A program made the position numbers and the translations under genes. Below are positions 2,243 through 36,574 of a stretch of DNA of 64,000 nucleotides, piece after piece. Under the pieces are notes generated by a model. That model saw only the letters and a program-made list of their open reading frames with translations, was not told the origin of the DNA and did not search any database. The stretch is taken from assembly GCA_016784385.1 (NCBI GenBank), contig JADHUT010000001.1, positions 20,547 through 84,546 on the forward strand, in the 5' to 3' direction. Each line of letters starts with the position of its first letter. The stretch's first letter is position 1. This DNA is from Candidatus Microgenomates bacterium. GTDB taxonomy: Bacteria; Patescibacteriota; Microgenomatia; UBA8517.

Positions 2243-2290
2243 AAATTCACAACCAAACTCCATCTACAGGTCTTAATGGGTGTCTTTACG

Positions 2291-2354
2291 ACCTTTTTTG
2301 ATAGTGGCCGTATTCGGGCGGCCACAAAACAAAAGCGTATTTCCCTGTGGGCAG
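2291..2354 (+). repeat. direct repeat copy B, abutting/overlapping the 3' end of tRNA-Trp
   Basis: ccttttttgatagtggccgtattcgggcggccacaaaacaaaagcgtatttccctgtgggcag; contains hairpin gtggccg-cccgaata-cggccac. Confidence 0.7.
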
Positions 2355-2421
2355 GGGCGAAGGGAATCGAACCCCTATCTAGTCTTTTGGAGAGACTTAT
2401 TCTACCGTTAAACTACGCCCC
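2353..2421 (-). tRNA. trnW: tRNA-Trp (anticodon CCA)
   Basis: minus strand GGGGCGTAGTTTAACGGTAGAATAAGTCTCTCCAAAAGACTAGATAGGGGTTCGATTCCCTTCGCCCCT; cloverleaf with anticodon loop CUCCAAA; closely parallels E. coli tRNA-Trp; CCA not encoded. Confidence 0.85.
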
Positions 2422-5821: not shown

Positions 5822-6661
5822 TTACTTTTCAATTAAGTAGGCTTCTTTGAATTGTTTCCAGGAAACTGGATTTTTTCCTTCAAGTTGAACCTCATCTAAA
5901 ACGAGTTTGTTTTCTTTTGTGTGACATTTTAGTATCTTCAATCTTTTTTGTTGTTTTTCTGTCTTTGATTTATTTATTTCTATGTTTGTCCATATTCCAG
6001 GCCAAGGTGTGTATGCCTTCATCTTTCTAACAATTAACTCTGGATCATCTTTTTTTAAATCCACAAATCCATCTCTTTTGGTTATTATTTTTGTATAAGT
6101 GGCATCAGCGTCGTTTTGAGGTTTCGGCCCAATGATATTTTTTTGGTAGAGGGGGAGTATTTCAACAAGTATATTTTTTGATCTATCAAAAAGTCTAACC
6201 CTCAAAGTTTCGGCAGTATCGCTTTTTTGTAGTTCATCTTTAAATGAAGTTATGATTGGCCCTCCATCCATTTTATCGGTTAATTTTATAATAGTAGCCC
6301 CCACGCTTTGGGGTTCCTCGATGATATTTTGCTGGACAGGGGAAGCACCTCTGAATTTGGGCAATAAGGACGGGTGAATATTTAAGATTCCAAGGGGAAA
6401 TTTGTTTAGAATTTTATTAGGTATTATTTTTCCATATGAGGCCAGTATTCCTATATCTGCAGGAGGAATTTCGTCAAAATTAAAGTGAATCGGAATATTT
6501 TTCTGGTGAGCATACTTATCAACTGCTGAGAATGTTTTTATTTTTTTCCTGCCAGCTATCTTGGGAGATTTTGTCACAACTGCAACTATTTCATGATATT
6601 TTTTTAGTTCCTTGAGGATGGGAACTACATATTGGGGGGTTCCAAAAAAAACTATTTTCAT
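5822..6661 (-). CDS. fmt: methionyl-tRNA formyltransferase
   Basis: MKIVFFGTP N-term, HPSLLPKFRGASPVQ motif; start at internal Met abutting def stop. Confidence 0.85.
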   Translation of the reverse strand: MKIVFFGTPQYVVPILKELKKYHEIVAVVTKSPKIAGRKKIKTFSAVDKYAHQKNIPIHFNFDEIPPADIGILASYGKIIPNKILNKFPLGILNIHPSLLPKFRGASPVQQNIIEEPQSVGATIIKLTDKMDGGPIITSFKDELQKSDTAETLRVRLFDRSKNILVEILPLYQKNIIGPKPQNDADATYTKIITKRDGFVDLKKDDPELIVRKMKAYTPWPGIWTNIEINKSKTEKQQKRLKILKCHTKENKLVLDEVQLEGKNPVSWKQFKEAYLIEK

Positions 6662-7226: not shown

Positions 7227-9221
7227 TTAATTTAGCTCTTGGAGGTATTTTTTAGTAAGTTCGTCTTTAGGGTCAATGTTGTTTAAAATATACTCAAATT
7301 GTTCTCTTGCCTTTTGGGGCATTTCAAAATCTTTGTAAGTTAGTCCCAATGCAAACCTGCCCTCTTTATAATTTGGTTTTAATAAAACTGTTTTCTCTAA
7401 AGTGTTTAACCCCTTTTGATTTTGCCCAGTTTTAAGATACATTAGACCTAATTGATAATGTAGTTTTGGATCTGTTGGTGAAATTACTATTGCAGATTCA
7501 ATAACTGAAATGGATGTATTAAGATAATTACGGTCGAATTGGGAAAGTTTTGCCAAAACCCCAGAGTATACTTTTTTGACATTAATATTATATGGGGCCA
7601 TTGTGTATGCTTTTTGGGACATTTCAATTGAAGAACCAACATCTTTTGTGGCTTTTTCAATATTGTCACTTTGTGCTGACATTAGTGCAACTTCAGCAAA
7701 ACTCATTGAAAGCTCAGTTAAAAATATTGGTTCTTTTGGATTTAGTGTTATTGCCTTCTGTAGTAGTTCAGATGCCTTGGTGAAATTTCCTGATTTATTG
7801 AGGAGTTTGGCTTTATTGTAGAAAAGATCTGCATACCAGTATTTTCCGACCATAAATAGAAAGGTAATTGAAACAATGATTGTTGTGAATAATGCTAGTT
7901 TTTGGCCTGTGTTTAGTTTTTGTTTCTCACCGCTTTTTTTAGTGTCTTGAGCGGTTGATACAGTCGCCATAGCTGGTAATAAAAAGGTAAGTAGCGACAC
8001 TGGAACAACTGAGAATCCAAAAAAATTTGTTGCTAGTATGGAAAGGTAACCGGCCAAATATTCATATTTTTTTGTTTTGTATATTAGTATGAAAGAAGTG
8101 GCAATAAGAACCATATAAGATAGAAATCCAAAAGTTCCTGTAGTTGCTAGATAGTTTAGGTATTCATTGTGTGCTTTGTTGTAAATAAAGTCCCATTCAG
8201 AAACCAGGTTGTGGGCAAGCGGCTTGTGCATTGGATACGCAAACGCGAATGTTTCAACTCCTGTTCCTAGAATTGGGTATCTTTTCCAAGTTTCAATGGC
8301 TCCAGTCCATACATTCTTTCTTATTTCACCTGACTCTGTTCCACCAGTTTCCAGAGCTGGTCCAGTTTGCGGTACAGGAGCATTGTTTGTTTTAGGCAGC
8401 TTCGTTGTAAAAAACACAAGCAAAAATAATGAGTTTAGGATTACAAATATTTTAAGCAGTCTTCTTTTGTGTTTTGTTTTTGAAAAGTTGTAGGTTTTAA
8501 AGTAAAGACTCCAAAATACTATTGTGGAAACCCCGAATCCTAAAAGTCCTGAACGAGATTTTGTAAAAAGAAGTGTTGTAAAAAACACAACAGAGATAAT
8601 TGTCCAGACAATCCTCCTGTTTGTACTGGTGTTTTGATCAACAATAATTACCCATGTAAGTGGCATTGTTAAACTTAGAAATGCAGCAAGCCAGTTTGGT
8701 TGACCGAATGTGGAATATACTCTGGAGGCTACATCCTGAACCCAACAGTCAGTGCTCCATCCAAGCCCCATAACCCCACAAGTTATGCCTATATGGAAAT
8801 GCTCCAAAATTGCCAAAATTGAGGACAGTAGTAATCCAGATATCAAATACCAAACAATCTTTTTAATTTGATCTTTTTTAACGTTTGAAACAAATGCCCA
8901 ATAAAGTAGGGAATAACAAATTTGTGAAATTAGTCCACCATTAAATCTAGAGTAGTATCCCAGCAGTGAAGTATTTGAATCCAGTGAAAAGATGGTACTA
9001 AGTATCAGGGCTGATAGATACAGAACAACTGGGATGTCTAGTATTGTGTGACGAAATATAAGTTTTTTGGCTTTTATTGAATTTACAACCCAAGACGTTC
9101 CAATTAAAATTGTAAAGATATATAAAGTAATTATTTTATTGAACTCAAAAAGTTCAGAAGTGTTTTTAAAAAAAACCAGAGGTATTAAAAACAATAAAAT
9201 TTTAAATAAATTTGAAATCAT
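7227..9221 (-). CDS. O-antigen ligase-like polytopic membrane protein with C-terminal TPR repeats
   Basis: about 10 TM helices with Wzy_C-like region plus TPR-like C-terminal 200 aa. Confidence 0.6.
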   Translation of the reverse strand: MISNLFKILLFLIPLVFFKNTSELFEFNKIITLYIFTILIGTSWVVNSIKAKKLIFRHTILDIPVVLYLSALILSTIFSLDSNTSLLGYYSRFNGGLISQICYSLLYWAFVSNVKKDQIKKIVWYLISGLLLSSILAILEHFHIGITCGVMGLGWSTDCWVQDVASRVYSTFGQPNWLAAFLSLTMPLTWVIIVDQNTSTNRRIVWTIISVVFFTTLLFTKSRSGLLGFGVSTIVFWSLYFKTYNFSKTKHKRRLLKIFVILNSLFLLVFFTTKLPKTNNAPVPQTGPALETGGTESGEIRKNVWTGAIETWKRYPILGTGVETFAFAYPMHKPLAHNLVSEWDFIYNKAHNEYLNYLATTGTFGFLSYMVLIATSFILIYKTKKYEYLAGYLSILATNFFGFSVVPVSLLTFLLPAMATVSTAQDTKKSGEKQKLNTGQKLALFTTIIVSITFLFMVGKYWYADLFYNKAKLLNKSGNFTKASELLQKAITLNPKEPIFLTELSMSFAEVALMSAQSDNIEKATKDVGSSIEMSQKAYTMAPYNINVKKVYSGVLAKLSQFDRNYLNTSISVIESAIVISPTDPKLHYQLGLMYLKTGQNQKGLNTLEKTVLLKPNYKEGRFALGLTYKDFEMPQKAREQFEYILNNIDPKDELTKKYLQELN

Positions 9222-10413: not shown

Positions 10414-11955
10414 ATGCAAAATCTTTCAAGTGTAAAAAATGACAGTTGGCTGGGATGGTTTTTGAGAGGGGTTTTAATTCTTGGAACCCTCTTTTTGTTT
10501 GTTCGTCTTTTTGAGCTGCAAATTATAAAGGGAGATTATTTTAGAAAACTGGCAGAAGGCAATAGAATTAAAAAAATAGTTATCCCCGCCGCTAGGGGCA
10601 AGATATTATCTCGTAGTGGTGAGGTTTTAACCGGCATCGATTTTGCCCATATAACAGGGTATTTGGCAGAAACCACAGAGGGAGAGGTTGGAGTAATTGA
10701 TCCAAAATGCCCCCACAAAGGTCCATACCAATTAGGTCAAATTGTAGGTCGTGGTGGACTGCAAGAATATTATAATTGCACCCTAACTGGTATTGATGGA
10801 GAAGAGTTGTGGGAAGTTGATAGCATGGGAGAGAAATTGCGATTCTTGGGTAGTCGTGATCCTGTCGCTGGAGAGAATTTAAAAACCACAATTGATTTGG
10901 AGCTACAAAGACAAATTGCAAAAAGTATGGATGAAAAGCCTGGTGCGGTTGTGGCAACAGATCTTGGTGGAGAAGTAATGGCCATCTATTCATATCCTTC
11001 TTTTGATCCCAAAAACATAGTACCCTCTTTAAAAGACGAGGATTTACCACTTTTTAACCGTGCTCTGGGTGGAATATACCACCCAGGTTCTATCTTTAAG
11101 CCTTTGATTGCAATTTCAGCGCTTGAGGAGGGTAAAATTGATAAAGACTTCAAATATACAGACAGTGGTGTCTTAACAGTAAAAACACTATATGGATCAT
11201 ATAGTTATGCAAACTGGTATTTTACTCAATATGGAGGAGTGGAAGGTGAAATTGATTTAACTAAAGCACTAGCCCGCTCAACCGATACTTTTTTTTACAA
11301 AATTGGTGAATTTGTTGGAATAAATAACCTGCTTGAATGGATGAAAAAGTTTGGGTTAACAAAACTTACAAACATTGATCTTCCTGGAGAAATTCTTTCT
11401 CTTGTCCCTTCACCTGATTGGAAATTAAAAGTAAAGGGAGAAAAATGGTTTCTGGGTAACACTTACCATTTTTCAATAGGTCAGGGAGATTTGGCATTAA
11501 CTCCAATTGGAATTCACAGAGCAAATTTAGTAGTTGCAAATGGTGGTCAACTTTGTGATCTAAAGCTGGCAGATGAGCCAAAATGCAAAAGATTGGGCAT
11601 AAAAAAAGAAAATATTGCATTGGTGCAAAGTGGAATGAATAAAGTGTGTGAGACTGGAGGAACCGGGTATACTTTTTTTGATTTTGGGCAGAAACATAAT
11701 GGCCTGCAAGTTTCTTGCAAAACTGGAACAGCTGAGACCAATGATGATGAAAAAACACATGCATGGTTTACTGTGTTTGTCCAACAGAGCCAGACGGTAA
11801 AGAAAGAAATAATGTTGACTGTGCTAGTTGAAAAATCAGGGGAAGGCTCAAAAGTTGCGGGACCAGTTGCAAGAGAAATACTAGACTTCTATTATGAAGA
11901 CCAAAAAACCACTCAGCCTACACCTGTCGTCGAGAAAGATTTAAACAATGAGTAA
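10414..11955 (+). CDS. mrdA: penicillin-binding protein 2 (transpeptidase)
   Basis: N-terminal TM anchor, PBP dimerisation and transpeptidase architecture; follows mreB. Confidence 0.8.
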   Translation: MQNLSSVKNDSWLGWFLRGVLILGTLFLFVRLFELQIIKGDYFRKLAEGNRIKKIVIPAARGKILSRSGEVLTGIDFAHITGYLAETTEGEVGVIDPKCPHKGPYQLGQIVGRGGLQEYYNCTLTGIDGEELWEVDSMGEKLRFLGSRDPVAGENLKTTIDLELQRQIAKSMDEKPGAVVATDLGGEVMAIYSYPSFDPKNIVPSLKDEDLPLFNRALGGIYHPGSIFKPLIAISALEEGKIDKDFKYTDSGVLTVKTLYGSYSYANWYFTQYGGVEGEIDLTKALARSTDTFFYKIGEFVGINNLLEWMKKFGLTKLTNIDLPGEILSLVPSPDWKLKVKGEKWFLGNTYHFSIGQGDLALTPIGIHRANLVVANGGQLCDLKLADEPKCKRLGIKKENIALVQSGMNKVCETGGTGYTFFDFGQKHNGLQVSCKTGTAETNDDEKTHAWFTVFVQQSQTVKKEIMLTVLVEKSGEGSKVAGPVAREILDFYYEDQKTTQPTPVVEKDLNNE

Positions 11956-12520
11956 TCTACAACAGAAGGACGAATTATATGTACTAGGTGAAATGCTAGA
12001 CCGGGACAAAAAGGCAGTTGCTGTTGTAGGGTCTCGTCTTATTACTCCAAGAGGAAGAAGGCTCACTACACTTTTTACAGAGGCACTAGTGGAGGCAGGT
12101 TACACAATTGTTTCAGGGCTTGCTCGTGGCGTGGACAGTGTTGCACACACTACTGCTTTGGAGAAAAAAGGAAGAACAATTGCAGTACTGGGATCTGGCA
12201 TCGATGTGATTTATCCTCCAGAGAATAAAGCTTTAGCAGAGCGTATTACTAAAAATGGAGCGTTAGTGTCGCCTTTCCCAAAAGGAACTCCACCAAGACC
12301 AGAAAACTTTTTGGCAAGAAACAAAATTGTTGTTATGCTTTCTGTTGCAGTTTTAGTGGTTGAAGGAAAAAGAAGGTCAGGTACTCTTTCAACTGCAAGC
12401 CATGCTGCAAATGAAGGAGTGGAGGTGTATGCAATCCCGGGGTCAGAAGCTACTGACTGGCTTATTAATCAAGGAGTTAATTCTGTGGCAACTCCAGAAA
12501 AATTAGTTGAAAGTTTGTAA
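11948..12520 (+). CDS. dprA: DNA processing protein DprA (Rossmann-like domain)
   Basis: AVVGSR..TPRG..GARGVDSVAH...VLGSGID pattern. Confidence 0.75.
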   Translation: MSNLQQKDELYVLGEMLDRDKKAVAVVGSRLITPRGRRLTTLFTEALVEAGYTIVSGLARGVDSVAHTTALEKKGRTIAVLGSGIDVIYPPENKALAERITKNGALVSPFPKGTPPRPENFLARNKIVVMLSVAVLVVEGKRRSGTLSTASHAANEGVEVYAIPGSEATDWLINQGVNSVATPEKLVESL

Positions 12521-13539
12521 TAGGTATTTTTGCCTTTTGCGTGTCTTTTGATTATTCTAAGTTTTATAAGCTTCCCAAAATCCAAAATTCTTGTAGCCTT
12601 TGCTCTGTCCGTTAGCCTTCTATAGTCACTGTTTTTAATGGCTCCGTATTTTTCTATATATTTTATGATGCTCTTCAAGTGTGGTTTAAGTTGAGTGTTT
12701 GGATTTTTTTGTAATTTATTTTTGTTTATATTCTTTTCAACTCTAAGTAATTCATCAATGATTCCATCAGTAAAATATTCAAGCCATTTTGTGAAATCAA
12801 CTGTATTTACTATTTCATAATAATTGCCAAATACTCCAACATTCTCAAAATATTTGGTCACATTTTGATTATAAAAGTTTTCAAATCCGAAAATATTGAA
12901 AGTATTTAGCCCCATTTTGGCTAATAGAAAGGTTGTAATTAGTCTTGTTGTTCTTCCGTTTCCGTCTGCAAAGGGGTGAATGATTACAAATTGTTTATGA
13001 AAAATTCCTGCTAAAATCAACGGGTCGATTAGTTTTTCATTTTTGTCAATAAAGTCAATTAATTTGACAACAAGACCATTGCAATCTTTCGCATCAGGAG
13101 GTAAATAGACTATTTTTTGCTCTTTTGGGTTATTGATAACAATTGGCACATTTCTTATTTTTCCAGATTGATGTTTAGGAAGCAAACTCTCAGTGACTCG
13201 TTTTTGTGTATCTAAAATTAACTCGAGACTTAATTTTACCTTTTTTCTTTTGGTTAGTTTTTCAAGTTCTATTAAAGATTTGTTGTAATTGGACACCTCT
13301 TGCTCACTGTCACGCATGTCCGAGGGTTTATTTTTTAGAATTTTTTTAACCTCTGTTAGAGGTAGGGGGTTACCTTCAATACTTGTAGATGCAAAGGAAG
13401 AAATTTCTCTTGCAGAAAGTTTCATTCTTACTAGAACTGGTTTTGAGAGTTTTTGTGAATTGAGGTTAATTATCAATGAATTTATCCTTTTTATGTTTGA
13501 TAAAAGCTTGTTTGTAATAGAGAAATTATAATTTGTCAT
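12469..13539 (-). CDS. Fic family protein (class II, with inhibitory alpha-inh motif)
   Basis: HPFADGNGRTTR Fic motif; N-terminal STSIEGN fits [ST]xxxE[GN]; start set to Met at 13539 to avoid overlap with topA. Confidence 0.75.
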   Translation of the reverse strand: MTNYNFSITNKLLSNIKRINSLIINLNSQKLSKPVLVRMKLSAREISSFASTSIEGNPLPLTEVKKILKNKPSDMRDSEQEVSNYNKSLIELEKLTKRKKVKLSLELILDTQKRVTESLLPKHQSGKIRNVPIVINNPKEQKIVYLPPDAKDCNGLVVKLIDFIDKNEKLIDPLILAGIFHKQFVIIHPFADGNGRTTRLITTFLLAKMGLNTFNIFGFENFYNQNVTKYFENVGVFGNYYEIVNTVDFTKWLEYFTDGIIDELLRVEKNINKNKLQKNPNTQLKPHLKSIIKYIEKYGAIKNSDYRRLTDRAKATRILDFGKLIKLRIIKRHAKGKNTYYKLSTNFSGVATELTP

Positions 13540-13624
13540 TAGTCTAATATTAGTCGAATAATAGTCGAATGTCAAGTGGAATTGCTTGACATGGAGTGTA
13601 AGATAGGTTGTTATTATTATACAC

Positions 13625-15649
13625 ATGAAATTAATAATCGTCGAATCACCAACAAAAGCTACTACCTTAAATAAATTTTTGGGGTCAGGGTATGATGTGG
13701 ATTCTACAAAGGGCCATATTAAAGACCTTCCCAAAAGCAAACTAAGTGTAGATGTGGAGCATGACTTTAAACCCAATTATGAAGTAGTAGAAAAACAATC
13801 TGCGATAATTAAAAATTTGCAAAAGAAAGCAAAAGAAGCAGAAGGGATTTTCATTGCAACTGACCCTGATCGTGAAGGAGAAGCAATCGCACAACATGTA
13901 TATGAGATATTGACGGAAGGAAAGAAAGATAAAATTAAGCCGGATACTATAAAAAGAATTACCTTTCATGAAATAACACAATCTGCAGTTGAGGATGCTA
14001 TTGAAAAGTCGGGTAGTGTAGATATTAATCTTGTTAATGCTCAAATTGCTAGAAGAGTACTGGATAGATTAGTGGGTTATACCCTTTCTCCGGTTTTATG
14101 GAGAAAAGTGAGAAGAGGCCTTTCTGCAGGAAGAGTTCAGTCTGTTGCAGTTAGACTTATTGTTGAAAAAGAAGAAGAGATTAAAAAGTTTAAAGCAGAA
14201 GAGTACTGGCAAATTTTTTCAGAATTGAAGGGCAATAAAAATCAATTTGTAACTGAACTGGTTAAAATTGATGGCATTAAGGCTGTTGTAAAAAACAAAA
14301 AAAATGTAGACGAAATTGTTGCTGATCTAAAAACTGCAAAATATATAGTAGCGGACATTAGAAAAAAGGAAGTTAGCAAAAAACCTTATTCACCTTTCAC
14401 AACTTCAACACTAACTCAAACCTCGGCAAGATTTTTTTCCTGGTCAGCTAAAAAAACAATGAGAATGGCACAAGGGCTTTATGAAAAGGGATTAATTACC
14501 TACCATAGAACAGATTCACACAGCCTTGCAAAGTCAGCAGTAGACAGTGCAAGAGAGTTTATAAAGAAAGAGTACGGGAGTGATTATTTGCCAGAGGGTC
14601 CAGTTGTTTACAAAACAAAAAGTAAATCTGCACAAGAAGCGCATGAAGCCATAAGAGTAACAGACGTCAAGGTAAAAACAGATCAAGTTGAAGGCAGTTC
14701 TGATGAACAAAAGCTATATGATCTTATAAGAAGAAGGTTTTTGGCTTGTCAGATGAATCCTGCTAAATATAGTGAAACCAGTATTGATGTGAGTGCTGGA
14801 AAATACATATTAAGAGTAGGTGGACAAACAATGATCTTTGATGGGTGGAGAAAACTATTCCCAACTGATGGAGAAGCAGTTATGCTACCCGAAATAGAAA
14901 AAGGGGACAAACTAGATCTAATCAAAACTTGGGGTGATCAAAAGTTCACACAACCACCAGCAAGATTTAATGAAGCCTCACTCATAAAGATGTTGGAAAA
15001 ACTAGGGATTGGAAGACCATCTACATATGCTCCTATCATTTCAACAATACAGGCTAGAAGTTACGTCGAAAAAAAGGATGCGCAGTTTTTACCGACAACA
15101 GTGGGGGTTGCTGTCACAAAATTTTTAATGGCCAATTTCATGGAAGAGTTGGAATACAACTTCACTGCAGAGATGGAAGATGATCTTGATAAAGTTGCAA
15201 CAGGCAAGTTAGATTGGACAAAAATGATGGGGAAGTTCTGGGGTCCATTTGGAAAAAAAGCAGAAAGTGTTACTAAAAACGCAGAAAGAATAAAAATTGA
15301 AACTGAAAAACTAGGTAAAAAGTGTCCAGATTGTAAAGATGGTGAGTTGGTAATTAGAGTTGGAAGATTTGGCAAGTTTATAAGCTGTTCCACTTTCCCA
15401 GAATGCAAACACACTGAAAAATTCTTGGATAAAATTGACATGATTTGCCCTGATTGTAAAAAAGGAGAAGTGATAATCAAAAAAACAAGAATAGGAAGAA
15501 GTTTCTTTGGCTGTTCACTTTATCCTGATTGTGAATTTGCCTCATGGAAAAAACCAGTGGATGGAAAGTTTGATAAAAAGAATAACCAAAATAAGAATTT
15601 TGTGAAAAAACAAGAAACGAAAGAAAATGACGTGACCAAGGAAAAGTAA
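13625..15649 (+). CDS. topA: DNA topoisomerase I
   Basis: Toprim N-term MKLIIVESPTKA, full-length topo IA, C-terminal Cys4 zinc ribbons. Confidence 0.95.
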   Translation: MKLIIVESPTKATTLNKFLGSGYDVDSTKGHIKDLPKSKLSVDVEHDFKPNYEVVEKQSAIIKNLQKKAKEAEGIFIATDPDREGEAIAQHVYEILTEGKKDKIKPDTIKRITFHEITQSAVEDAIEKSGSVDINLVNAQIARRVLDRLVGYTLSPVLWRKVRRGLSAGRVQSVAVRLIVEKEEEIKKFKAEEYWQIFSELKGNKNQFVTELVKIDGIKAVVKNKKNVDEIVADLKTAKYIVADIRKKEVSKKPYSPFTTSTLTQTSARFFSWSAKKTMRMAQGLYEKGLITYHRTDSHSLAKSAVDSAREFIKKEYGSDYLPEGPVVYKTKSKSAQEAHEAIRVTDVKVKTDQVEGSSDEQKLYDLIRRRFLACQMNPAKYSETSIDVSAGKYILRVGGQTMIFDGWRKLFPTDGEAVMLPEIEKGDKLDLIKTWGDQKFTQPPARFNEASLIKMLEKLGIGRPSTYAPIISTIQARSYVEKKDAQFLPTTVGVAVTKFLMANFMEELEYNFTAEMEDDLDKVATGKLDWTKMMGKFWGPFGKKAESVTKNAERIKIETEKLGKKCPDCKDGELVIRVGRFGKFISCSTFPECKHTEKFLDKIDMICPDCKKGEVIIKKTRIGRSFFGCSLYPDCEFASWKKPVDGKFDKKNNQNKNFVKKQETKENDVTKEK

Positions 15650-16162
15650 TTAATACTTTTCAATTTTTTTGGACAAGAACTCTAGTTTTATTTTAGCCTT
15701 TTTTAACATTGCTTCTGACTCAGCTCCGGCGTGATATTTATTTCTTGCCAACACCCTTTTTACACCTGAGTTTATGAGGAGCATTGCACAAGTTCTACAA
15801 GGGGTCATGTTTACATACACAGTAGATCCTTCTATAGAAACTCCCCTTTTTGCGGCTTGGCAAATTGCATTTTGTTCTGCGTGTACAGTCCTCATACAAT
15901 GATCAGTTGTAGACCCATCTTCGTGGGTAAGCTTTTTCATCTGATGTCCCACATCATCACAGTGTGGTAATCCTGCAGGGGAACCAACATAACCTGTAAC
16001 TAATACTTGTCTGTCTTTTACAAAAACACAACTTGCTCTTCCTCTGTCACAAGATGCTCTCTTGGAAGTAGCATCCATTATTTGCATAAAATACTCATCC
16101 CACGAAGGCTTTTTGTGTTTATTTTTAGATAATATTTTTGATGGTTTTTTCGACTTGCTCAT
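15650..16162 (-). CDS. deoxycytidylate (dCMP) deaminase
   Basis: HAEQNAI and PCRTCA zinc-binding motifs. Confidence 0.85.
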   Translation of the reverse strand: MSKSKKPSKILSKNKHKKPSWDEYFMQIMDATSKRASCDRGRASCVFVKDRQVLVTGYVGSPAGLPHCDDVGHQMKKLTHEDGSTTDHCMRTVHAEQNAICQAAKRGVSIEGSTVYVNMTPCRTCAMLLINSGVKRVLARNKYHAGAESEAMLKKAKIKLEFLSKKIEKY

Positions 16163-16679
16163 GTAAATCTACAATTTTTTTATTGTTTGTAAATATATAA
16201 TCTGCTAAAGATATGCATTTTGCAAGGTTCTGTTTTGCAGGATTTTGTGATTTCATCTCCCTTTTTTCATCCACGACAAATTTTTCAAAACTTACATGAT
16301 CAGATTCAATTGCCCTCTTATTTATTCTTTTGTATCTTTTTTCAATATCTGCATCCACTGCAAATAACACAAATTCTCCCTTGCTCTTTAGTGAATAAAT
16401 TTCAGCTGGAGTTCTAAGGCTTTCTATTATGAAATTTTTACCAGTTTTGATTGCGGTTTTGTAAATCTGCTCAATTAAGTAGCTTGGACCATGTTTTAAA
16501 CGCAGATCATTTGCAACAACAACCATGTTATCTCTATTTATTTCAAGACCTCTTTTGACAATTTCTTTATTTATGAAATCTCGTACGGAGTAGTGGCCAA
16601 ATTTTTTTTCGGTAACAAGATAGTCAACGACTGTTCCTTTTCCAGCACCCAAAGTTCCTGTAATTCCAATTACTAGCAT
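16125..16679 (-). CDS. P-loop nucleoside/nucleotide kinase (CoaE/adenylate-kinase-like)
   Basis: Walker A GITGTLGAGKGTV at N-terminus; small kinase size. Confidence 0.55.
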   Translation of the reverse strand: MLVIGITGTLGAGKGTVVDYLVTEKKFGHYSVRDFINKEIVKRGLEINRDNMVVVANDLRLKHGPSYLIEQIYKTAIKTGKNFIIESLRTPAEIYSLKSKGEFVLFAVDADIEKRYKRINKRAIESDHVSFEKFVVDEKREMKSQNPAKQNLAKCISLADYIFTNNKKIVDLHEQVEKTIKNII

Positions 16680-16694
16680 TTATCGATTACAATA

Positions 16695-17129
16695 TTGATT
16701 ATGGTTAAAGTCAAGTTTCAAAAATTAAATAAAAATGCAAAGATCCCCTCGTTTGCACACATTGATGATGCAGGGTTTGACATATATACAAACAAAACCA
16801 CTGTTGTAAAAAAACTAATTCCGACCATTGTATCTACTGGAATATCTTCTGAATTTCCGGTCGGGTACTTTGTATCATTTCGTGACAAATCAGGACTAGC
16901 TGCAAAACACGGTATTCATGTAATGGGTGGAGTAATTGATGCAGGTTACAGAGGTGAATGGGGAATAATACTAGTCAATCTTGGAAAAAAGGTTTATAAA
17001 TTTGAAAAAGGAGACAAGGTAGCGCAGGCAATTGTTCACAAACTTGAAAGTGTAAAACTAACAATATCAAATTCTCTCTCCAAAACAAAAAGAGGAAAAG
17101 GCGGGTTTGGAAGTACTGGGAAAAAATAA
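16695..17129 (+). CDS. dut: dUTP diphosphatase
   Basis: AGFDIY, GVIDAGYRGE motifs. Confidence 0.9.
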   Translation: MIMVKVKFQKLNKNAKIPSFAHIDDAGFDIYTNKTTVVKKLIPTIVSTGISSEFPVGYFVSFRDKSGLAAKHGIHVMGGVIDAGYRGEWGIILVNLGKKVYKFEKGDKVAQAIVHKLESVKLTISNSLSKTKRGKGGFGSTGKK

Positions 17130-17140
17130 TTCCTCTTGAC
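17055..17140 (+). repeat. direct repeat copy 1 (86 bp): last 23 codons of dut plus 3' flank
   Basis: 80/86 identical to 17835-17920. Confidence 0.85.
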
Positions 17141-17164
17141 AGAAATACGGAATTACCGTAAAAT
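17136..17164 (+). promoter_or_regulatory. consensus sigma70 promoter TTGACA-17nt-TAAAAT driving the antitoxin gene (leaderless or very short leader)
   Basis: TTGACA 17136-17141, TAAAAT 17159-17164, ATG 17172. Confidence 0.6.
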
Positions 17165-17171
17165 AGAATTT

Positions 17172-17426
17172 ATGCAAAATGTATTTGATGAACAAATAAT
17201 TCAGCTTCAGCCCAGAGGTGTTTTTACTATTCCAAAAAAATTAAGAGAGGGTTTATTTGATGATATGGGAATTGCCAAGATAATGAGGTTGGGCAGAAAA
17301 TTGGTAATAGAACCTGTGCGAACATTACCATATCAGGCTAGAAGTTACACAGACGATGAATTGGGAGATTTTTATAAATTAGATGACAAAGAGACAAAAA
17401 AACTTAGAGCCAAAGGTATTATTTAA
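17172..17426 (+). CDS. SpoVT/AbrB-type (MazE-like) antitoxin
   Basis: QLQPRGVFTIPKKLREGL swapped-hairpin motif; overlaps downstream PIN gene by 44 nt; ATG start chosen over TTG of ORF track. Confidence 0.6.
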   Translation: MQNVFDEQIIQLQPRGVFTIPKKLREGLFDDMGIAKIMRLGRKLVIEPVRTLPYQARSYTDDELGDFYKLDDKETKKLRAKGII

Positions 17427-17832
17427 TGCTTCAGTTGTACTCTCTGGATTAAGATCTCCAAATGGTGGATCAGGTAAATTATTAGATTTTGTCGGAGAAA
17501 AGTTAATTAATGGACAAATAAGTGAAATTATTTTAGATGAGATATTAAAACATAGTCAGAAACTTGGGATACCAAAAACTACTGCACAAAAGAAATGTTT
17601 GAAATATTTTGAACCAATATTGTCTGAACCGGGTTTAAAAAAGGTAGATAAATATACAAAAAAAGTAATTGATGAGGGAGATGCTCATGTATTAGCTTCA
17701 TATGAAGAAGGAAGTTGTAATTACTTGGTCACATTAGATAAAAAACATTTGTTATCACTTAAAGGAAAAATAAAAGGATTTAATATTTATACACCTGGGG
17801 AATTAATACAATTGTTAAAAATAAAGATATGA
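17383..17832 (+). CDS. PIN-like domain protein (putative toxin; first acidic residue apparently N)
   Basis: VLFNASVV...DAHVLASYEE...YLVTLDKKHL PIN-like pattern. Confidence 0.5.
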   Translation: MTKRQKNLEPKVLFNASVVLSGLRSPNGGSGKLLDFVGEKLINGQISEIILDEILKHSQKLGIPKTTAQKKCLKYFEPILSEPGLKKVDKYTKKVIDEGDAHVLASYEEGSCNYLVTLDKKHLLSLKGKIKGFNIYTPGELIQLLKIKI

Positions 17833-17834
17833 AA

Positions 17835-17920
17835 AAACTAACAACTTCAAATTCTCTCTCCAAAATAAAAAGAGGAAAAGGTGGGTTTGGAAGTACTGGT
17901 AAAAAGTAATTCCTCTTGAC
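17835..17920 (+). repeat. direct repeat copy 2 (86 bp); would encode KKLTTSNSLSKIKRGKGGFGSTGKK with no start
   Basis: 93% identical to 17055-17140; ends at the same ttcctcttgac boundary. Confidence 0.85.
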
Positions 17921-17951
17921 GGTTAGTGTTTAAATTGGTAAAAAACTCTCA

Positions 17952-19493
17952 GTGGAAAGACGAGTATTAACTGAACAAGAAGCTTGTCAGGATATTTTGA
18001 ACCAATACCTAAGTTTAGGTGAAAAATTTCAAAATTTTCCAACGGTAACTTTAAGATTAAATTCTCACACTCCCGATGGTGAGGTAATACAGGCAGAGTC
18101 AGTGGGCGCCTCAACAGCATATCAGTGTTATGCGGGAGGTGTTGCAAGGATGGTTAACCGAGATGATAAAAGATCTTTAAATATCGCACGAGATACACTC
18201 AATGCAGGACACCACACAACTAGAATGCACACACACTACACTTGGAAGATTGTTGGAGCAACGAGGTCTGTTACACACGATGTTTTTCATGCAACCCCTT
18301 TTTACAATTCAGAACAACAAAGTCAAAGATATGTAGAGGCAAGGGAGGGATTTTTTTTAGTTCCGAATGAGCTAACATCAGAACAAACAAATATTTACAA
18401 AGAAGCCGCGGACTTTGCTAATGGGTCATACTTTAGGCTGTTGGGAGATTTAAAACCTTTGGTAGAAGAAAGAGTAAGGGCCATGAATCCAGAAGGTGGA
18501 TGGAAAGTGGAAGGAACAAGATATAGACTTGGGGGCAAAATTGACAAACTAAGCCAAGAGATAGCAAGGTATGTTTTACCTTTAGCCCAGCATACTACAT
18601 ATGACCACACCCTAAACGAACTTCAATTATTAAGGCTTTTTCAAGCGAGTAACATGGAAGGATTTACTAATGAGGCGAAATATTTAATAGCATCGATGAT
18701 TGGTGAGGTTTCTAAGGTTGACCCATCAATTTTAAGAGAGTTGAGAACACCTGCAGATATTGATGAATCTGAAAATAAAGTAACTGACAAAATACAGATT
18801 GATAAATTGCTTGATGGAAAAATGTCTGCACTCCTTCAGTCTCCGGAAAATGTTGACAGAGAATTGTTAGGGAGGATGGCAAACAGTAGTTTGTTGGCAA
18901 ATGTTTTTGATGTGGGTATGTTTGATCCACAAGTTTCAAGAATGAGAGAGTTTAATTTTGCTTTTGCAACAAAACTATCTCATGCAGGAGATTCACAAAG
19001 ACAACGGCACAGAAGAACAGCCGCAGGGGTTATGCCTATTGGCCAAATTTATGACGGAGAGGCTGATTTTATAACACCCCTTGTCATCAAAGAAAATCTC
19101 CAAATAAATAGAAAATATGAAGAAATGGTGGTCAATATGTTTGAAAACGTCAAAAAGGCGCTAAATGCAGGTATCCCTAAAGAATTTGCATTACTTCTTT
19201 TACCTAACGCAATATCTGTTCGGACTATTGAGTCTGGAGATTTATTTGATTGGATACATAGATGGAAACAAAGACTTTGTTATCTAGCTCAAGAAGAAAT
19301 ATTTTTTGCTTCAGTGAATCAGGTGGAAGATGTGTTGAAAAAAATACCTGAACTTACTCCAGCTCTACAAGCTCCTTGTGGAATTCGGAAGATGCATGGA
19401 GTAAAACCAAGATGTCCAGAAGGCGAAAGATGGTGTGGAAAACCAGTTTTTAATTGGGAAATTGGAGAGTATTCTGAAAATAGACTAATATAA
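17952..19493 (+). CDS. thyX: tandem-duplicated ThyX-like protein (flavin-dependent thymidylate synthase family), divergent
   Basis: half 1 AGHHTTRMHTHYTW..YNSEQQSQRY..VLPLAQHTTY; half 2 QRQRHRRTAAG..LLLPNAISVRT..QEEI; each half resembles the ThyX core HETPFEH/RHR/YNELSGRY/VLPLNLYT. Confidence 0.55.
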   Translation: MERRVLTEQEACQDILNQYLSLGEKFQNFPTVTLRLNSHTPDGEVIQAESVGASTAYQCYAGGVARMVNRDDKRSLNIARDTLNAGHHTTRMHTHYTWKIVGATRSVTHDVFHATPFYNSEQQSQRYVEAREGFFLVPNELTSEQTNIYKEAADFANGSYFRLLGDLKPLVEERVRAMNPEGGWKVEGTRYRLGGKIDKLSQEIARYVLPLAQHTTYDHTLNELQLLRLFQASNMEGFTNEAKYLIASMIGEVSKVDPSILRELRTPADIDESENKVTDKIQIDKLLDGKMSALLQSPENVDRELLGRMANSSLLANVFDVGMFDPQVSRMREFNFAFATKLSHAGDSQRQRHRRTAAGVMPIGQIYDGEADFITPLVIKENLQINRKYEEMVVNMFENVKKALNAGIPKEFALLLLPNAISVRTIESGDLFDWIHRWKQRLCYLAQEEIFFASVNQVEDVLKKIPELTPALQAPCGIRKMHGVKPRCPEGERWCGKPVFNWEIGEYSENRLI

Positions 19494-19611
19494 TTTTTTT
19501 AAAATTTTAGTAACAAAAAAAGAAGGATTTGAAAATACTGGTAAAAGTTAATTGTCTACTTGCAATTTCTGTTTGAAAAGGTTATTTTTGTTTTTGCTCC
19601 TGCCCGAGTAT

Positions 19612-20268
19612 ATGGAAAGAAATTCTGGATATTTTATAACACTTGAAGGGGGGGAAGGTTGTGGTAAAACTTCTCACGTACCTGGCTTAGCTGATCGTCT
19701 TCGTGAAAGAGATTTGGTTGTTTTTCCAACTCGCGAACCAGGTGGAACGTCTATTGGTGAGCAGATAAGAGAGGTTCTACATAATATGAAAAATAAGGAA
19801 ATGCATCCACGGACAGAAACTTTATTATTTCAAGCTGCCAGGGTACAATTTGTTGAAGAAGTCCTCAGACCAAAGATTGACTTGAGTGAGATTGTAATTT
19901 CAGACAGGTATGCTGATTCTACGCTAGCATATCAAGGATACGGGCATAGACAAGATGTTCAAGAACTTTTAGGGATTATTATTTATGCCACTGGTGGTTT
20001 AGTTCCAGATCTAACGGTTTTATTAGATGTAGATGTAGAAATTGGATTAGCCAGAAAACGGAGCTCAAGTGAATGGAACAGACTTGATGATTATCCCCCA
20101 GAATTTCACCACAGAGTTAATGAGGGGTATTTAGAAATGGCCAAAAAAGACCCAGATCGTTGGGTAGTCATAAATGCCAATGAAACAAAGGGTCGGGTGT
20201 TTGATAATTTGGTGGAAGTTGTCGAAACAAAACTAGAAAAAGCTGGAATTTTAAAAAGACAGAACTGA
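19612..20268 (+). CDS. tmk: thymidylate kinase
   Basis: ITLEGGEGCGKTS P-loop, DRY motif region; Met 19612 preferred over upstream TTG. Confidence 0.85.
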   Translation: MERNSGYFITLEGGEGCGKTSHVPGLADRLRERDLVVFPTREPGGTSIGEQIREVLHNMKNKEMHPRTETLLFQAARVQFVEEVLRPKIDLSEIVISDRYADSTLAYQGYGHRQDVQELLGIIIYATGGLVPDLTVLLDVDVEIGLARKRSSSEWNRLDDYPPEFHHRVNEGYLEMAKKDPDRWVVINANETKGRVFDNLVEVVETKLEKAGILKRQN

Positions 20269-28331: not shown

Positions 28332-28628
28332 ATGCAATTATTACCTAACATAACGACTTCTACTGAAGTGCAAAGAAATTTTAAAAAAGTAGCTAAAAGG
28401 GCCAAGTCTATAGATGACGCCTTAATTATTTTTGCTAATAATAAACCCGATCTCATCATTGCAGACTATCGTTGGTATGCACATATTGTAGGCCAGGGAA
28501 TGACTAAAAAAAGAAATAAATCTGGAATAGATGCAATTTTTGGAACTTGGAGTAAAAAAGAAGCGAATGAGTTTAACAAATATATTGATGAAGCTTTCGA
28601 ACAAATTAACCCAGAGGATTGGAAATGA
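28332..28628 (+). CDS. Phd/YefM-like antitoxin
   Basis: TSTEVQRNFKKVAKRAKSIDDALIIFANNKPDLII; overlaps vapC by 10 nt; TTGACA at 28294 and TATAAT at 28326-28331 just before ATG. Confidence 0.55.
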   Translation: MQLLPNITTSTEVQRNFKKVAKRAKSIDDALIIFANNKPDLIIADYRWYAHIVGQGMTKKRNKSGIDAIFGTWSKKEANEFNKYIDEAFEQINPEDWK

Positions 28629-29026
28629 CGAGAATTATTCTTGACACTAATGCATATAGTGAATTATGTAAAGGGAATTCCTTTGTAAAAAAAATATTCA
28701 AAAAGGCAAATACAGTATACATTCCGGCAGTTGTGCTTGGAGAACTGTTTTACGGATTCAAACGGGGTAACAAGGAAAACGATAATTTAAATTTACTAAA
28801 AATGTTTTTAGATCAAAAAGGCCTAAAGATTGTTAATATAGATGGGAAAACTGCAAGTATATATGCAGAGATAAAATTGGAGTTGACTAAAAATGGTACA
28901 CCTATTTCAGAAAATGATATTTGGATTGCTGCAAGTGCTATTGAAACTGGTTCAACCGTAATTACTTACGACAAGCACTTTTTAAAAATTCCTAAAATTA
29001 AAGTTTGGAAAAATTTGAAGAAATAA
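28619..29026 (+). CDS. vapC: PIN domain toxin VapC
   Basis: IILDTNAY...E...DIWIAASAIETGSTVITYDKHF PIN acidic residues. Confidence 0.75.
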   Translation: MEMTRIILDTNAYSELCKGNSFVKKIFKKANTVYIPAVVLGELFYGFKRGNKENDNLNLLKMFLDQKGLKIVNIDGKTASIYAEIKLELTKNGTPISENDIWIAASAIETGSTVITYDKHFLKIPKIKVWKNLKK

Positions 29027-35899: not shown

Positions 35900-36574
35900 A
35901 TGTATATGGCAGAAGAAACAATTAATGTTGTTGGCACCACGGCTCCAAAAGTGGACAAAAAACCAAATTTCAAAATTATGGGCGCAATTATTGGAATTGT
36001 TGTTTTGGCCATTGGGGTTATTGCTGGAATTATCTTGGTTCGCCAACAGCAAGATATAAGAGAAAAAGCCCAATGTGTTGAGCAATGTCCAGGTTCTGAT
36101 GGGGTTTTGCGAAATTGTAGTGAGCCAATAATTGATCCTGCAAATCTACAAAGTATATGTAACTTGGCTGGAAGAATAGAATATTGCGGTGGTGCACGGT
36201 TTTGTTGTCCATCTGCAGGAGGCGATTGGACCTCCAATCTATCGCTTTGTCCTCAATCTACTTCTACCCCTACAGCAACTGCCACTGCCACATCCACCGC
36301 TACTGCAACAAGCACATCTAGTGGATCTTCATCTCCTACAGCAACATCAACAAGCACATCTAGTGGATCTTCATCTCCCACAGCAACATCAACAAGCACA
36401 TCTAGTGGATCTTCATCTCCTACAGCCACCTCCACAGCAACAAGTACATCAACTTCTTCTGGTTCAACTGCAACACCATTCCCGGTTCCTGATACTGGTT
36501 CTTCACTACCTACAATTTTTGGTATGGGTGCTGGTATTTTGATAATAGTTGCATCATTGTTCCTCGCACTATGA
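35900..36574 (+). CDS. cell-surface protein: N-terminal TM, 8-Cys domain, Ser/Thr-rich tandem repeats, C-terminal hydrophobic anchor
   Basis: TSTSSGSSSPTATS x3; C-term VPDTGSSLPTIFGMGAGILIIVASLFLAL. Confidence 0.55.
   Translation: MYMAEETINVVGTTAPKVDKKPNFKIMGAIIGIVVLAIGVIAGIILVRQQQDIREKAQCVEQCPGSDGVLRNCSEPIIDPANLQSICNLAGRIEYCGGARFCCPSAGGDWTSNLSLCPQSTSTPTATATATSTATATSTSSGSSSPTATSTSTSSGSSSPTATSTSTSSGSSSPTATSTATSTSTSSGSTATPFPVPDTGSSLPTIFGMGAGILIIVASLFLAL
36309..36434 (+). repeat. 42-bp in-frame tandem repeat x3 inside the surface-protein gene
   Basis: acaagcacatctagtggatcttcatctcc(t/c)acagcaacatca repeated. Confidence 0.85.

Follow-up and report, generated by a model that had tools for sequence, protein, structure and literature searches.

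Displaced copies of the dut terminus as probable scars of gene insertion between dut and tmk in a Candidatus Microgenomates bacterium

How does a two-gene toxin-antitoxin (TA) unit come to stand between dut and thyX in a compact bacterial genome, bracketed by two near-identical copies of the end of the dut gene? The question is raised by a stretch of 64,000 nucleotides (nt) from contig JADHUT010000001.1 of a Candidatus Microgenomates bacterium (the window, to whose positions all coordinates refer unless another locus is named), in which the initial annotation had described an 86-nt repeat spanning the 3' end of dut. Here we examine this junction by comparison with 53 loci that were fetched (numbered with the prefix L). 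We conclude with considerable confidence that the arrangement is the scar of additive insertion, in which a second and a third copy of the dut terminus (c2 and c3) are displaced gene ends, and that no recombinase encoded by an inserted element was involved. The third copy was missed before; an empty-site relative and the exact boundaries of the inserted unit are also added here.

The gene and the two copies closest to it are:
16701-17129, + strand: dut, trimeric dUTPase of 142 amino acids (aa) (Pfam PF00692, 1.2e-24; TIGR00576, 8.7e-41)
17054-17140, + strand: c1 (copy 1), the functional dut terminus, 81/87 identical to c2
17834-17920, + strand: c2 (copy 2), a displaced dut terminus, 81/87 identical to c1 and matching the dut terminus of L015 (5359-5436) at 84.6%
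17829-17909, + strand: 26-codon open reading frame (ORF) made at the junction, MKKLTTSNSLSKIKRGKGGFGSTGKK followed by a stop codon, predicted by translation of the sequence

The product of dut is identical to a protein named at NCBI as "dUTP diphosphatase [Candidatus Microgenomates bacterium]". The block as first reported (17055-17140 and 17835-17920, in register at an offset of 780) is 80/86 identical, and one further matching base on the left extends it to 81/87. Copy c1 consists of the final 76 nt of dut with its stop codon, then TTCCTC, then TTGAC, and is continuous with the alignment to dut of L015, the closest relative found, as far as 17135. Copy c2 now forms the upstream part and the -35 hexamer of the thyX promoter; read in the dut frame it still encodes the C-terminal peptide, as had been claimed (KLTTSNSLSKIKRGKGGFGSTGKK, then a stop codon). 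The six differences between c1 and c2 fall on two second and four third codon positions, without any indel or stop codon, and all of them lie outside the 14-nt non-coding tail. The earlier statement that c2 has no start codon needs correction: an in-frame ATG at 17829-17831 overlaps the stop codon of the PIN-domain gene of the inserted pair (ATGA) and opens the mini-ORF at 17829-17909, for which a ribosome-binding signal is absent.

The repeat is tied to dut, as the initial annotation supposed. Its 32-nt core occurs exactly twice in the window against no occurrence in 100 shuffles, and a dispersed repeat was rejected on the grounds of this count and of the 53 loci fetched, where the core is found only in contigs of the same strain. 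In a scan in which the last 45 nt of each of 76 genes, with 10 nt of flank, were slid across 4 kb downstream, dut scored 51/55 and all other genes and upstream controls at most 33; among the 76 genes of the window, only dut has its 3' end repeated at a displaced position. An assembly artefact is ruled out by eleven contigs from separate samples and assemblers, which are 100% identical over 16600-19700 and show no strain variation among them in that interval. A longer repeat of 112 nt was also considered and discarded, because the extra in-register CAATTGTT match to the left of the block (17029-17036) encodes the family-conserved IQLL of the PIN protein; we read this match as coincidental.

What the junction looked like without the inserted genes can be seen in L015 (tblastn protein identities of 83% for dut, 84% for topA, 88% for dcd and 85% for kin). 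This locus has the same synteny from dprA to frr, yet tmk follows directly after dut, and the TA pair and thyX are both missing. In BLAST comparisons, three segments of the window (15642-17135, 17839-17915 and 19525 onward) fall on the one L015 dut terminus, the last of them beginning 27 nt ahead of the L015 dut stop codon and continuing into tmk. Three segments on a single terminus imply a third remnant, c3, after thyX, and together with the empty site this gives the locus as dut[c1]-TA-[c2]-thyX-[c3]-tmk, with two serial insertions. The features downstream of the TA pair are:
17916-17944, + strand: thyX promoter (-35 TTGACG at 17916-17921, 17-nt spacer, -10 TAAAAA at 17939-17944, GTG start 7 nt on)
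17952-19493, + strand: thyX, 513 aa, with two Thy1 stretches (PF02511, 1.1e-39)
about 19515-19559, + strand: c3 (copy 3), a decayed dut terminus between thyX and tmk, with its stop-codon equivalent at 19549-19551
19560-19588, + strand: tmk promoter (-35 TTGCAA at 19560-19565, -10 TATTTT at 19583-19588), gapless with L015

Copy c3 lies directly upstream of the tmk promoter, and the tmk ATG is at 19612. It is identical to c2 at 23/30 positions (P = 2e-8), with its position fixed by synteny, and to L015 at 55/76 without gaps, from inside dut through the tmk -10; its changes are mostly G to A, as expected of neutral decay in a genome of 36% GC. That the TA pair was inserted at the dut 3' end and bracketed by the duplication, as first proposed, is borne out by L015 with its one dut terminus and no cassette. 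The relative thus does carry a single copy after dut, as had been anticipated, but the simple picture of one event does not stand: L015 also lacks thyX, and this together with c3 behind thyX points to two nested or serial events. Both insertions would have entered at one site, bounded by TTCCTC on the left and by the -35 of the following gene on the right, each re-copying the dut terminus, and the thyX insertion is much older than the TA insertion. The duplicated lengths are unequal, with about 45-55 nt for the thyX event and 82-87 nt for the TA event. The thyX promoter has counterparts in a homologous module (TTGyAA-N17-TAAAAG-N6-GTG) in L012, L013, L021 and L022. The shortest ThyX among relatives has 314 aa (L048) and the longest 585 aa (L038), and the family appears to include tandem-domain forms.

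The state of c2, with at most 1-3 changes and no indels against the heavy decay of c3, suggests an explanation that concerns its maintenance rather than its origin, namely that c2 is kept for a function of its own, either as UP-element and -35 of the thyX promoter or as a coupled 26-aa motif V peptide. Copy c2 does contain the thyX -35, preceded by an A-rich stretch, and the in-frame ATG of the mini-ORF overlaps the PIN stop codon. We nevertheless consider this highly improbable: c2 may simply be young, the mini-ORF has no ribosome-binding signal, c3 has decayed in the equivalent position upstream of tmk, and in relatives the thyX -35 comes directly after the stop codon with no upstream block.

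What was inserted at the dut|thyX junction is a unit extending from promoter to stop codon (17136-17832), with the following parts:
17136-17164, + strand: the unit's own promoter and operator, TTGACA-17-TAAAAT, 11/12 consensus match
17136-17141, + strand: -35 TTGACA
17146-17160, + strand: palindrome TACGGAATTACCGTA
17159-17164, + strand: -10 TAAAAT
17172-17426, + strand: candidate antitoxin of 84 aa, MazE/SpoVT-AbrB-like (hhalign, 89% probability, E = 2.4e-6)
17383-17832, + strand: predicted toxin of 149 aa, PIN_3 family (PF13470, 5.6e-9; TIGR00305)

The promoter had been recognized between the copies by the initial annotation, as had a PIN-like gene, and both identifications hold. The antitoxin ATG is only 7 nt past the -10, implying a leaderless transcript. 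The PIN protein scores 37.3 bits with PF13470 (cut-off 27) and 33.2 bits with TIGR00305 (cut-off 29.15); its 243 homologues are almost all from Candidate Phyla Radiation (CPR) sources, the nearest being 68% identical, and no relative was found in a PDB sequence search. The two genes overlap by 44 nt, and both the overlap and the PIN N-terminus are conserved in the family. The 84-aa antitoxin has no match in Pfam, NCBIfam or PDB sequence searches. Its AbrB/MazE-type label, also suggested before, comes from an hhalign comparison of a six-member family alignment with MazE_antitoxin-type proteins of related loci over 69 columns, and is reasonable but not proven. The PIN family alignment contains invariant D52/E53, D97, D100 and D119, and an invariant F-N-A-S in the N-terminal strand, at the place where the first catalytic Asp (usual D-x-N) would be expected; the active site of this PIN_3 family may be non-canonical. 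By its PIN domain, overlapping bicistron and operator palindrome, the pair would be a VapBC-like type II module, with toxicity as a prediction.

The limits of the unit, from TTGACAGAA to the PIN stop codon, are kept in five other Microgenomates loci, and the flanks are not conserved. Homologous pairs in L030, L038, L046 and L048 open with TTGACAGAAwTA, a palindrome, TAwwAT, 7 nt and ATG, and the palindrome lies between the -35 and the -10 in 5/5 homologous cassettes. Since the start of the module is conserved in homologous cassettes, the TTGACA at 17136 belongs to the cassette. The ttcctcttgac boundary at which both copies were said to end is indeed shared, but its TTGAC represents the -35s of two promoters, TTGACA of the cassette and TTGACG of thyX (17916), and is microhomology outside the duplicated host sequence. 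At the left joint, the -35 hexamer lies just past the dut stop codon with this 5-nt microhomology, and at the right joint, 76 nt inside dut, an A-run is present. No flanking duplication was found at the homologous cassettes in L025, L030, L038, L041, L046 and L048, and the repeat therefore does not belong to the element. The window contains a second TA pair (28332-29026, between proS and a HIT-family gene), consisting of a VapB-like gene (PF02697, weak) and a PIN gene (PF01850, 1.7e-19), and it too has no flanking duplication. The duplication as a property of the TA element was rejected on these two observations.

Can any known mobile-element machinery account for the insertion? The Pfam lists for the 10 kb to the left and to the right contain no recombinase, nor was one found among ten larger ORFs. 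Neither a transposase nor terminal inverted repeats are present at the locus. No attC-like fold was found, the block and its vicinity have no relevant inverted repeat, folding of the DNA at 17040-17170 gives z = -2 with no long hairpin, and a search of 1-22000 with Rfam returned tRNAs only. Between the repeats there are only the antitoxin and PIN genes (or thyX). An integron attC or other structured recombination site was rejected because there is no inverted-repeat hairpin and the repeat is dut coding sequence, and an integron gene cassette because the unit has its own conserved promoter, no attC and no integrase within 10 kb; for the same reasons, the term cassette capture, if meant in the integron sense, is not retained. 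Insertion of a transposon or insertion sequence was rejected because of the missing transposase and terminal inverted repeats, the unequal duplication lengths and the other units without a duplication, which agrees with the earlier remark that a transposase target-site duplication is not involved. A phage or plasmid vector was rejected because no relatives are found in IMG/VR, INPHARED or PLSDB.

Another possibility is an integrase acting in trans on the dut 3' end as attB, with c1, c2 and c3 as attL/attR-type repeats of tandem elements that have lost, or never had, an integrase of their own, resembling cis-mobilizable elements (CIMEs). The replacement terminus, the pseudo-terminus at the far end and the tandem order with the youngest element beside the intact gene fit the topology of integration into gene 3' ends, of which prophage e14 in icd is the example (PMC6379469), and as in that system the repeats consist of the target-gene terminus, with the upstream copy, c1, completing dut. 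A second terminus-plus-flank duplication, beside tRNA-Trp in the window, would also fit. Against this, no integrase is present within 10 kb on either side or in the larger unannotated ORFs checked, each insert consists of a single promoter-to-stop unit and nothing more, the TA unit is repeat-free at five other sites, the two events duplicated different lengths, searches for phage and plasmid relatives were negative, and the block has no notable inverted-repeat core. We consider this explanation improbable.

The tRNA-Trp duplication itself (1685-1769 and 2255-2357, minus strand, downstream of tRNA-Trp 2348-2423) comprises about 10 nt of the 3' end and about 90 nt of flank, 83% identical with indels. 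Its copies bracket an insert of about 480 bp containing a 76-aa coiled-coil-like ORF (2012-2242, + strand) and a GC-rich stretch (about 1806-1870), in which Rfam finds nothing.

Relatives show the junction in several other states. In L052 (dut 71%) the order is dut-orf65-tmk, with no thyX between dut and tmk, and more distant relatives have a MazG-like or dcd/dut gene in the dUTPase slot and thyX or thyA beside it. The slot is occupied by a trimeric dUTPase in the window, L015, L016 and L052, by a MazG-like pyrophosphohydrolase in L012 (5621-5959), L013, L020-22, L030 and L048, and by a dcd/dut-type gene in L038, which would represent non-orthologous displacement at one syntenic position. Thymidylate synthase likewise alternates between thyX, thyA-folA (L017, L053) and none (L015, L016, L030, L052). 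The dut homologue of L016 (917-1369, 80% identical) contains an A-run frameshift just ahead of motif V that alters the C-terminus; the gene is a true pseudogene, or else the homopolymer was misassembled. L015 and L052 came only from the dut-based protein search; ThyX scans of genomes and metagenomes returned nothing over 59% identity.

The TA family occurs in the same neighbourhood, in differing slots, in 5/6 sampled lineages: topA|dcd in L048, MazG|glyA in L030, upstream of dcd/dut-thyX in L038, and after thyX on the opposite strand in L025, with an unrelated site in L046. The ORF between topA and dcd in L015 was checked for a TA remnant, and none was found. L013 and L012 have a different AbrB/PIN pair (TA'); in L013 it stands ahead of thyX, and in L012 it follows thyX and is preceded by GTCACGCAATAGGTAA (L012:7540-7600, compared with L013:5180-5240). 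This sequence resembles a MazG-like gene end of the L013 allele type over about 11-16 nt, partly overlying an operator half-site of the cassette. L012 has a full MazG-like gene upstream of thyX, whose functional end is of the L021/L022 allele type. The remnant in L012 looks like a displaced gene terminus of the same kind as those in the window. In L013, TAATTTCCCTC occurs both before the thyX -35 (after the TA' stop) and before the tmk -35 (after the thyX stop) (5940-5960 and 7525-7550). Cassette-free relatives have no such motif before thyX, and the pair suggests a short junction duplication accompanying the L013 rearrangement. The MazG-like gene beside TA' in L013 (4905-5205) is broken, with an ORF that ends after 68 aa and tblastn pieces covering 1-66 and 81-112, and is probably a pseudogene. 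The mazG-thyX segment of L013 is nearest to L020 (87-91% at the nt level) and its topA nearest to L012, and TA' of L012 and L013 is 88% similar, above the flanking genes. In these mosaic segment identities, recombinational exchange among related genomes at this locus is directly visible.

How, then, was the unit brought in? The explanation we favour, to which we give about an even chance, is that host homologous recombination anchored in dut imported the unit from a relative. The donor would have been related Microgenomates DNA already carrying the unit behind dut. It could have entered as a circularised fragment by a Campbell-type single crossover, or recombined by homology at one end only and been joined through microhomology at the other. 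Copy c1 would then be the imported allele, regenerating dut, and c2 the resident terminus, displaced and still fronting the thyX promoter. A similar but earlier event would have brought thyX into the ancestral dut|tmk junction and left c3, and a dedicated recombinase would not have been involved in either. In E. coli, single crossover of a circular molecule carrying part of its target produces duplications of 109-950 bp (PMC3240628), and the topology of the present locus matches these experimental products. In the compact genomes studied here, the -35 of the next gene, often an essential one, lies 0-10 nt from the preceding stop codon. Survivors would be expected only where both the dut end and the adjacent promoter of the downstream essential gene are kept, and such a filter would explain why duplications rather than deletions are seen. 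The confinement of the TA family to one neighbourhood, in different slots, is also expected if transfer depends on flanking homology. Patescibacteria are reported to have competence and homologous-recombination genes and to have gained nucleotide-metabolism genes by transfer (PMC12455944), and a DprA-domain gene (PF02481) is present in the window, about 4 kb upstream.

The direction of the substitutions bears on the same question. When polarised against L015, L016 and L017, c1 clearly has the derived state at three sites, two of them in ACT to ATA and one in GGT to GGC. With c3 as the reference, GGT to GGG and AAG to AAA are probably also changes of c1, whereas at the sixth site c2 is derived (ACA to ATA). 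Thus 3-5 of the six differences are derived in c1, and with all of them motif V of the dUTPase could still work. In-situ duplication followed by decay would lead one to expect more change in the relic c2 than in the selected c1, and the reverse is seen. This fits an arrival of c1 with the cassette from a diverged relative and leans weakly towards import.

Such in-situ duplication, by replicative template switching or staggered-break repair, is the main competing explanation, and had been raised by the initial annotation. Synthesis would have run through dut to the -35, jumped at TTGAC to a TA template (foreign DNA or another locus), copied to the PIN stop, and jumped back by 82-87 nt to re-copy the dut terminus, so that both copies would be resident and would have diverged later. 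The TTGAC microhomology at the left joint and the A-run at the right joint are both in keeping with this, as are a cassette without recombination sites, the unequal lengths (about 45-55 and 82-87 nt) that back-jumps would be expected to give, the identical non-coding tails of c1 and c2, and the fact that no donor arrangement was observed. On the other side, most polarisable differences are derived in the selected c1 and not in the supposedly neutral c2, which is a weak objection, and neither the single syntenic neighbourhood of the TA family across lineages nor the allele-type mismatch of the L012 remnant is explained. Template switching thus stands as a live rival, although mosaicism and substitution polarity lean weakly to homology-anchored import, and we regard it as rather unlikely.

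Several points weigh against homology-anchored import as well. The polarity rests on six sites, two of them polarised by the decayed c3 only, and is not significant (about P = 0.1). No donor with a dut-TA or dut-thyX arrangement was found in protein, genome or metagenome searches, and there is no sister strain with an empty TA site among the eleven contigs, which are all identical. The identical 14-nt non-coding tail in c1 and c2 fits in-situ duplication at least equally well. A homology of 82-87 nt is short for a RecA-mediated crossover, and natural transformation brings in linear single strands rather than circles. Finally, classical homology-facilitated illegitimate recombination (HFIR) usually yields an insertion accompanied by a deletion, with 3-10 bp of microhomology at the joint (PMC3240628), which is why the argument from a selection filter is needed.

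By whichever route, the locus preserves, at base-pair resolution, a record of how an ultra-small CPR genome gained a defence or addiction module and thyX, a gene of an essential pathway, while sparing dut and the promoters of the tightly packed neighbouring genes, with no mobile-element machinery visible. Ordinary host recombination was probably at work, not a cassette-capture system, and such recombination, probably after uptake of DNA from relatives, is indicated as a route of gene gain at this locus. The dUTPase|thyX|tmk junction, of which relatives show four states, is a recurrent slot of gene exchange. For annotation, the locus is a caution that relic gene tails can mimic small ORFs or att sites. 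A broader proposal, which we consider distinctly unlikely, is that the dut terminus is a reusable, homology-addressed landing pad, and that dut|c|TA|c|thyX|c|tmk is an integrase-free array. If so, RecA recombination between c copies could let units be excised as loops and enter related genomes again, streamlined competent CPR bacteria could trade single operons while leaving packed essential genes undisrupted, the tRNA-Trp duplication and the MazG-like terminus in L012 would be further instances, and the whole would be an integrase-free analogue of cassette arrays.

Two other features of the window were recorded. A Fic/DOC-domain ORF (12469-13776, minus strand) converges on the DprA-domain gene (11948-12520), overlapping that gene at the 3' end, an arrangement also present in L015, and a 42-nt tandem repeat of at least 3 units lies inside an ORF at 36250-36417.

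The structure can be compared with several known systems. It resembles the products of Campbell-type single crossover and HFIR in having target homology on one side and microhomology at the other joint (PMC3240628); those processes are known from laboratory constructs, while here the homology is 82-87 nt and the donor is postulated. The serial small units, each followed by a similar repeat and with the newest beside the entry point, recall integron arrays. This resemblance is superficial, in that the units have their own promoters, the repeat comes from a host gene instead of being an attC hairpin, intI and attI are both missing, and the same unit in other genomes lacks the repeat. Tandem islands and CIMEs at the 3' ends of tRNA and tmRNA genes are also delimited by direct repeats of a gene terminus that separate successive inserts, and integrase-free CIMEs can persist between such repeats. 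They differ from the present case, where the target is protein-coding, the inserts are single operons with no island backbone, no integrase is present in cis, and the repeats are unequal. The inserted pair shares with VapBC modules an antitoxin gene placed first, overlapping genes, a PIN toxin and an operator palindrome in the promoter, but departs from typical VapBC in having a toxin of the PIN_3/TIGR00305 type with invariant FNAS and an antitoxin that belongs to no curated family. Prophage e14 is a multi-kilobase element with its own integrase and defined att sites. On insertion into E. coli icd, e14 supplies a replacement 3' end and displaces the 163-bp pseudo-icd' to its far side, where this fragment is non-functional and differs by few, mostly conservative, substitutions (PMC6379469). 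The topology of e14 (and of phage 21) in icd is the same as that of dut[c1]-insert-[c2], while the insert here is a 0.7-kb gene pair with no recombinase, att core or phage genes, and the duplicated length varies. The pseudo-icd' of e14 is the nearest documented analogue, and the structure described here is not a new kind of mobile element.

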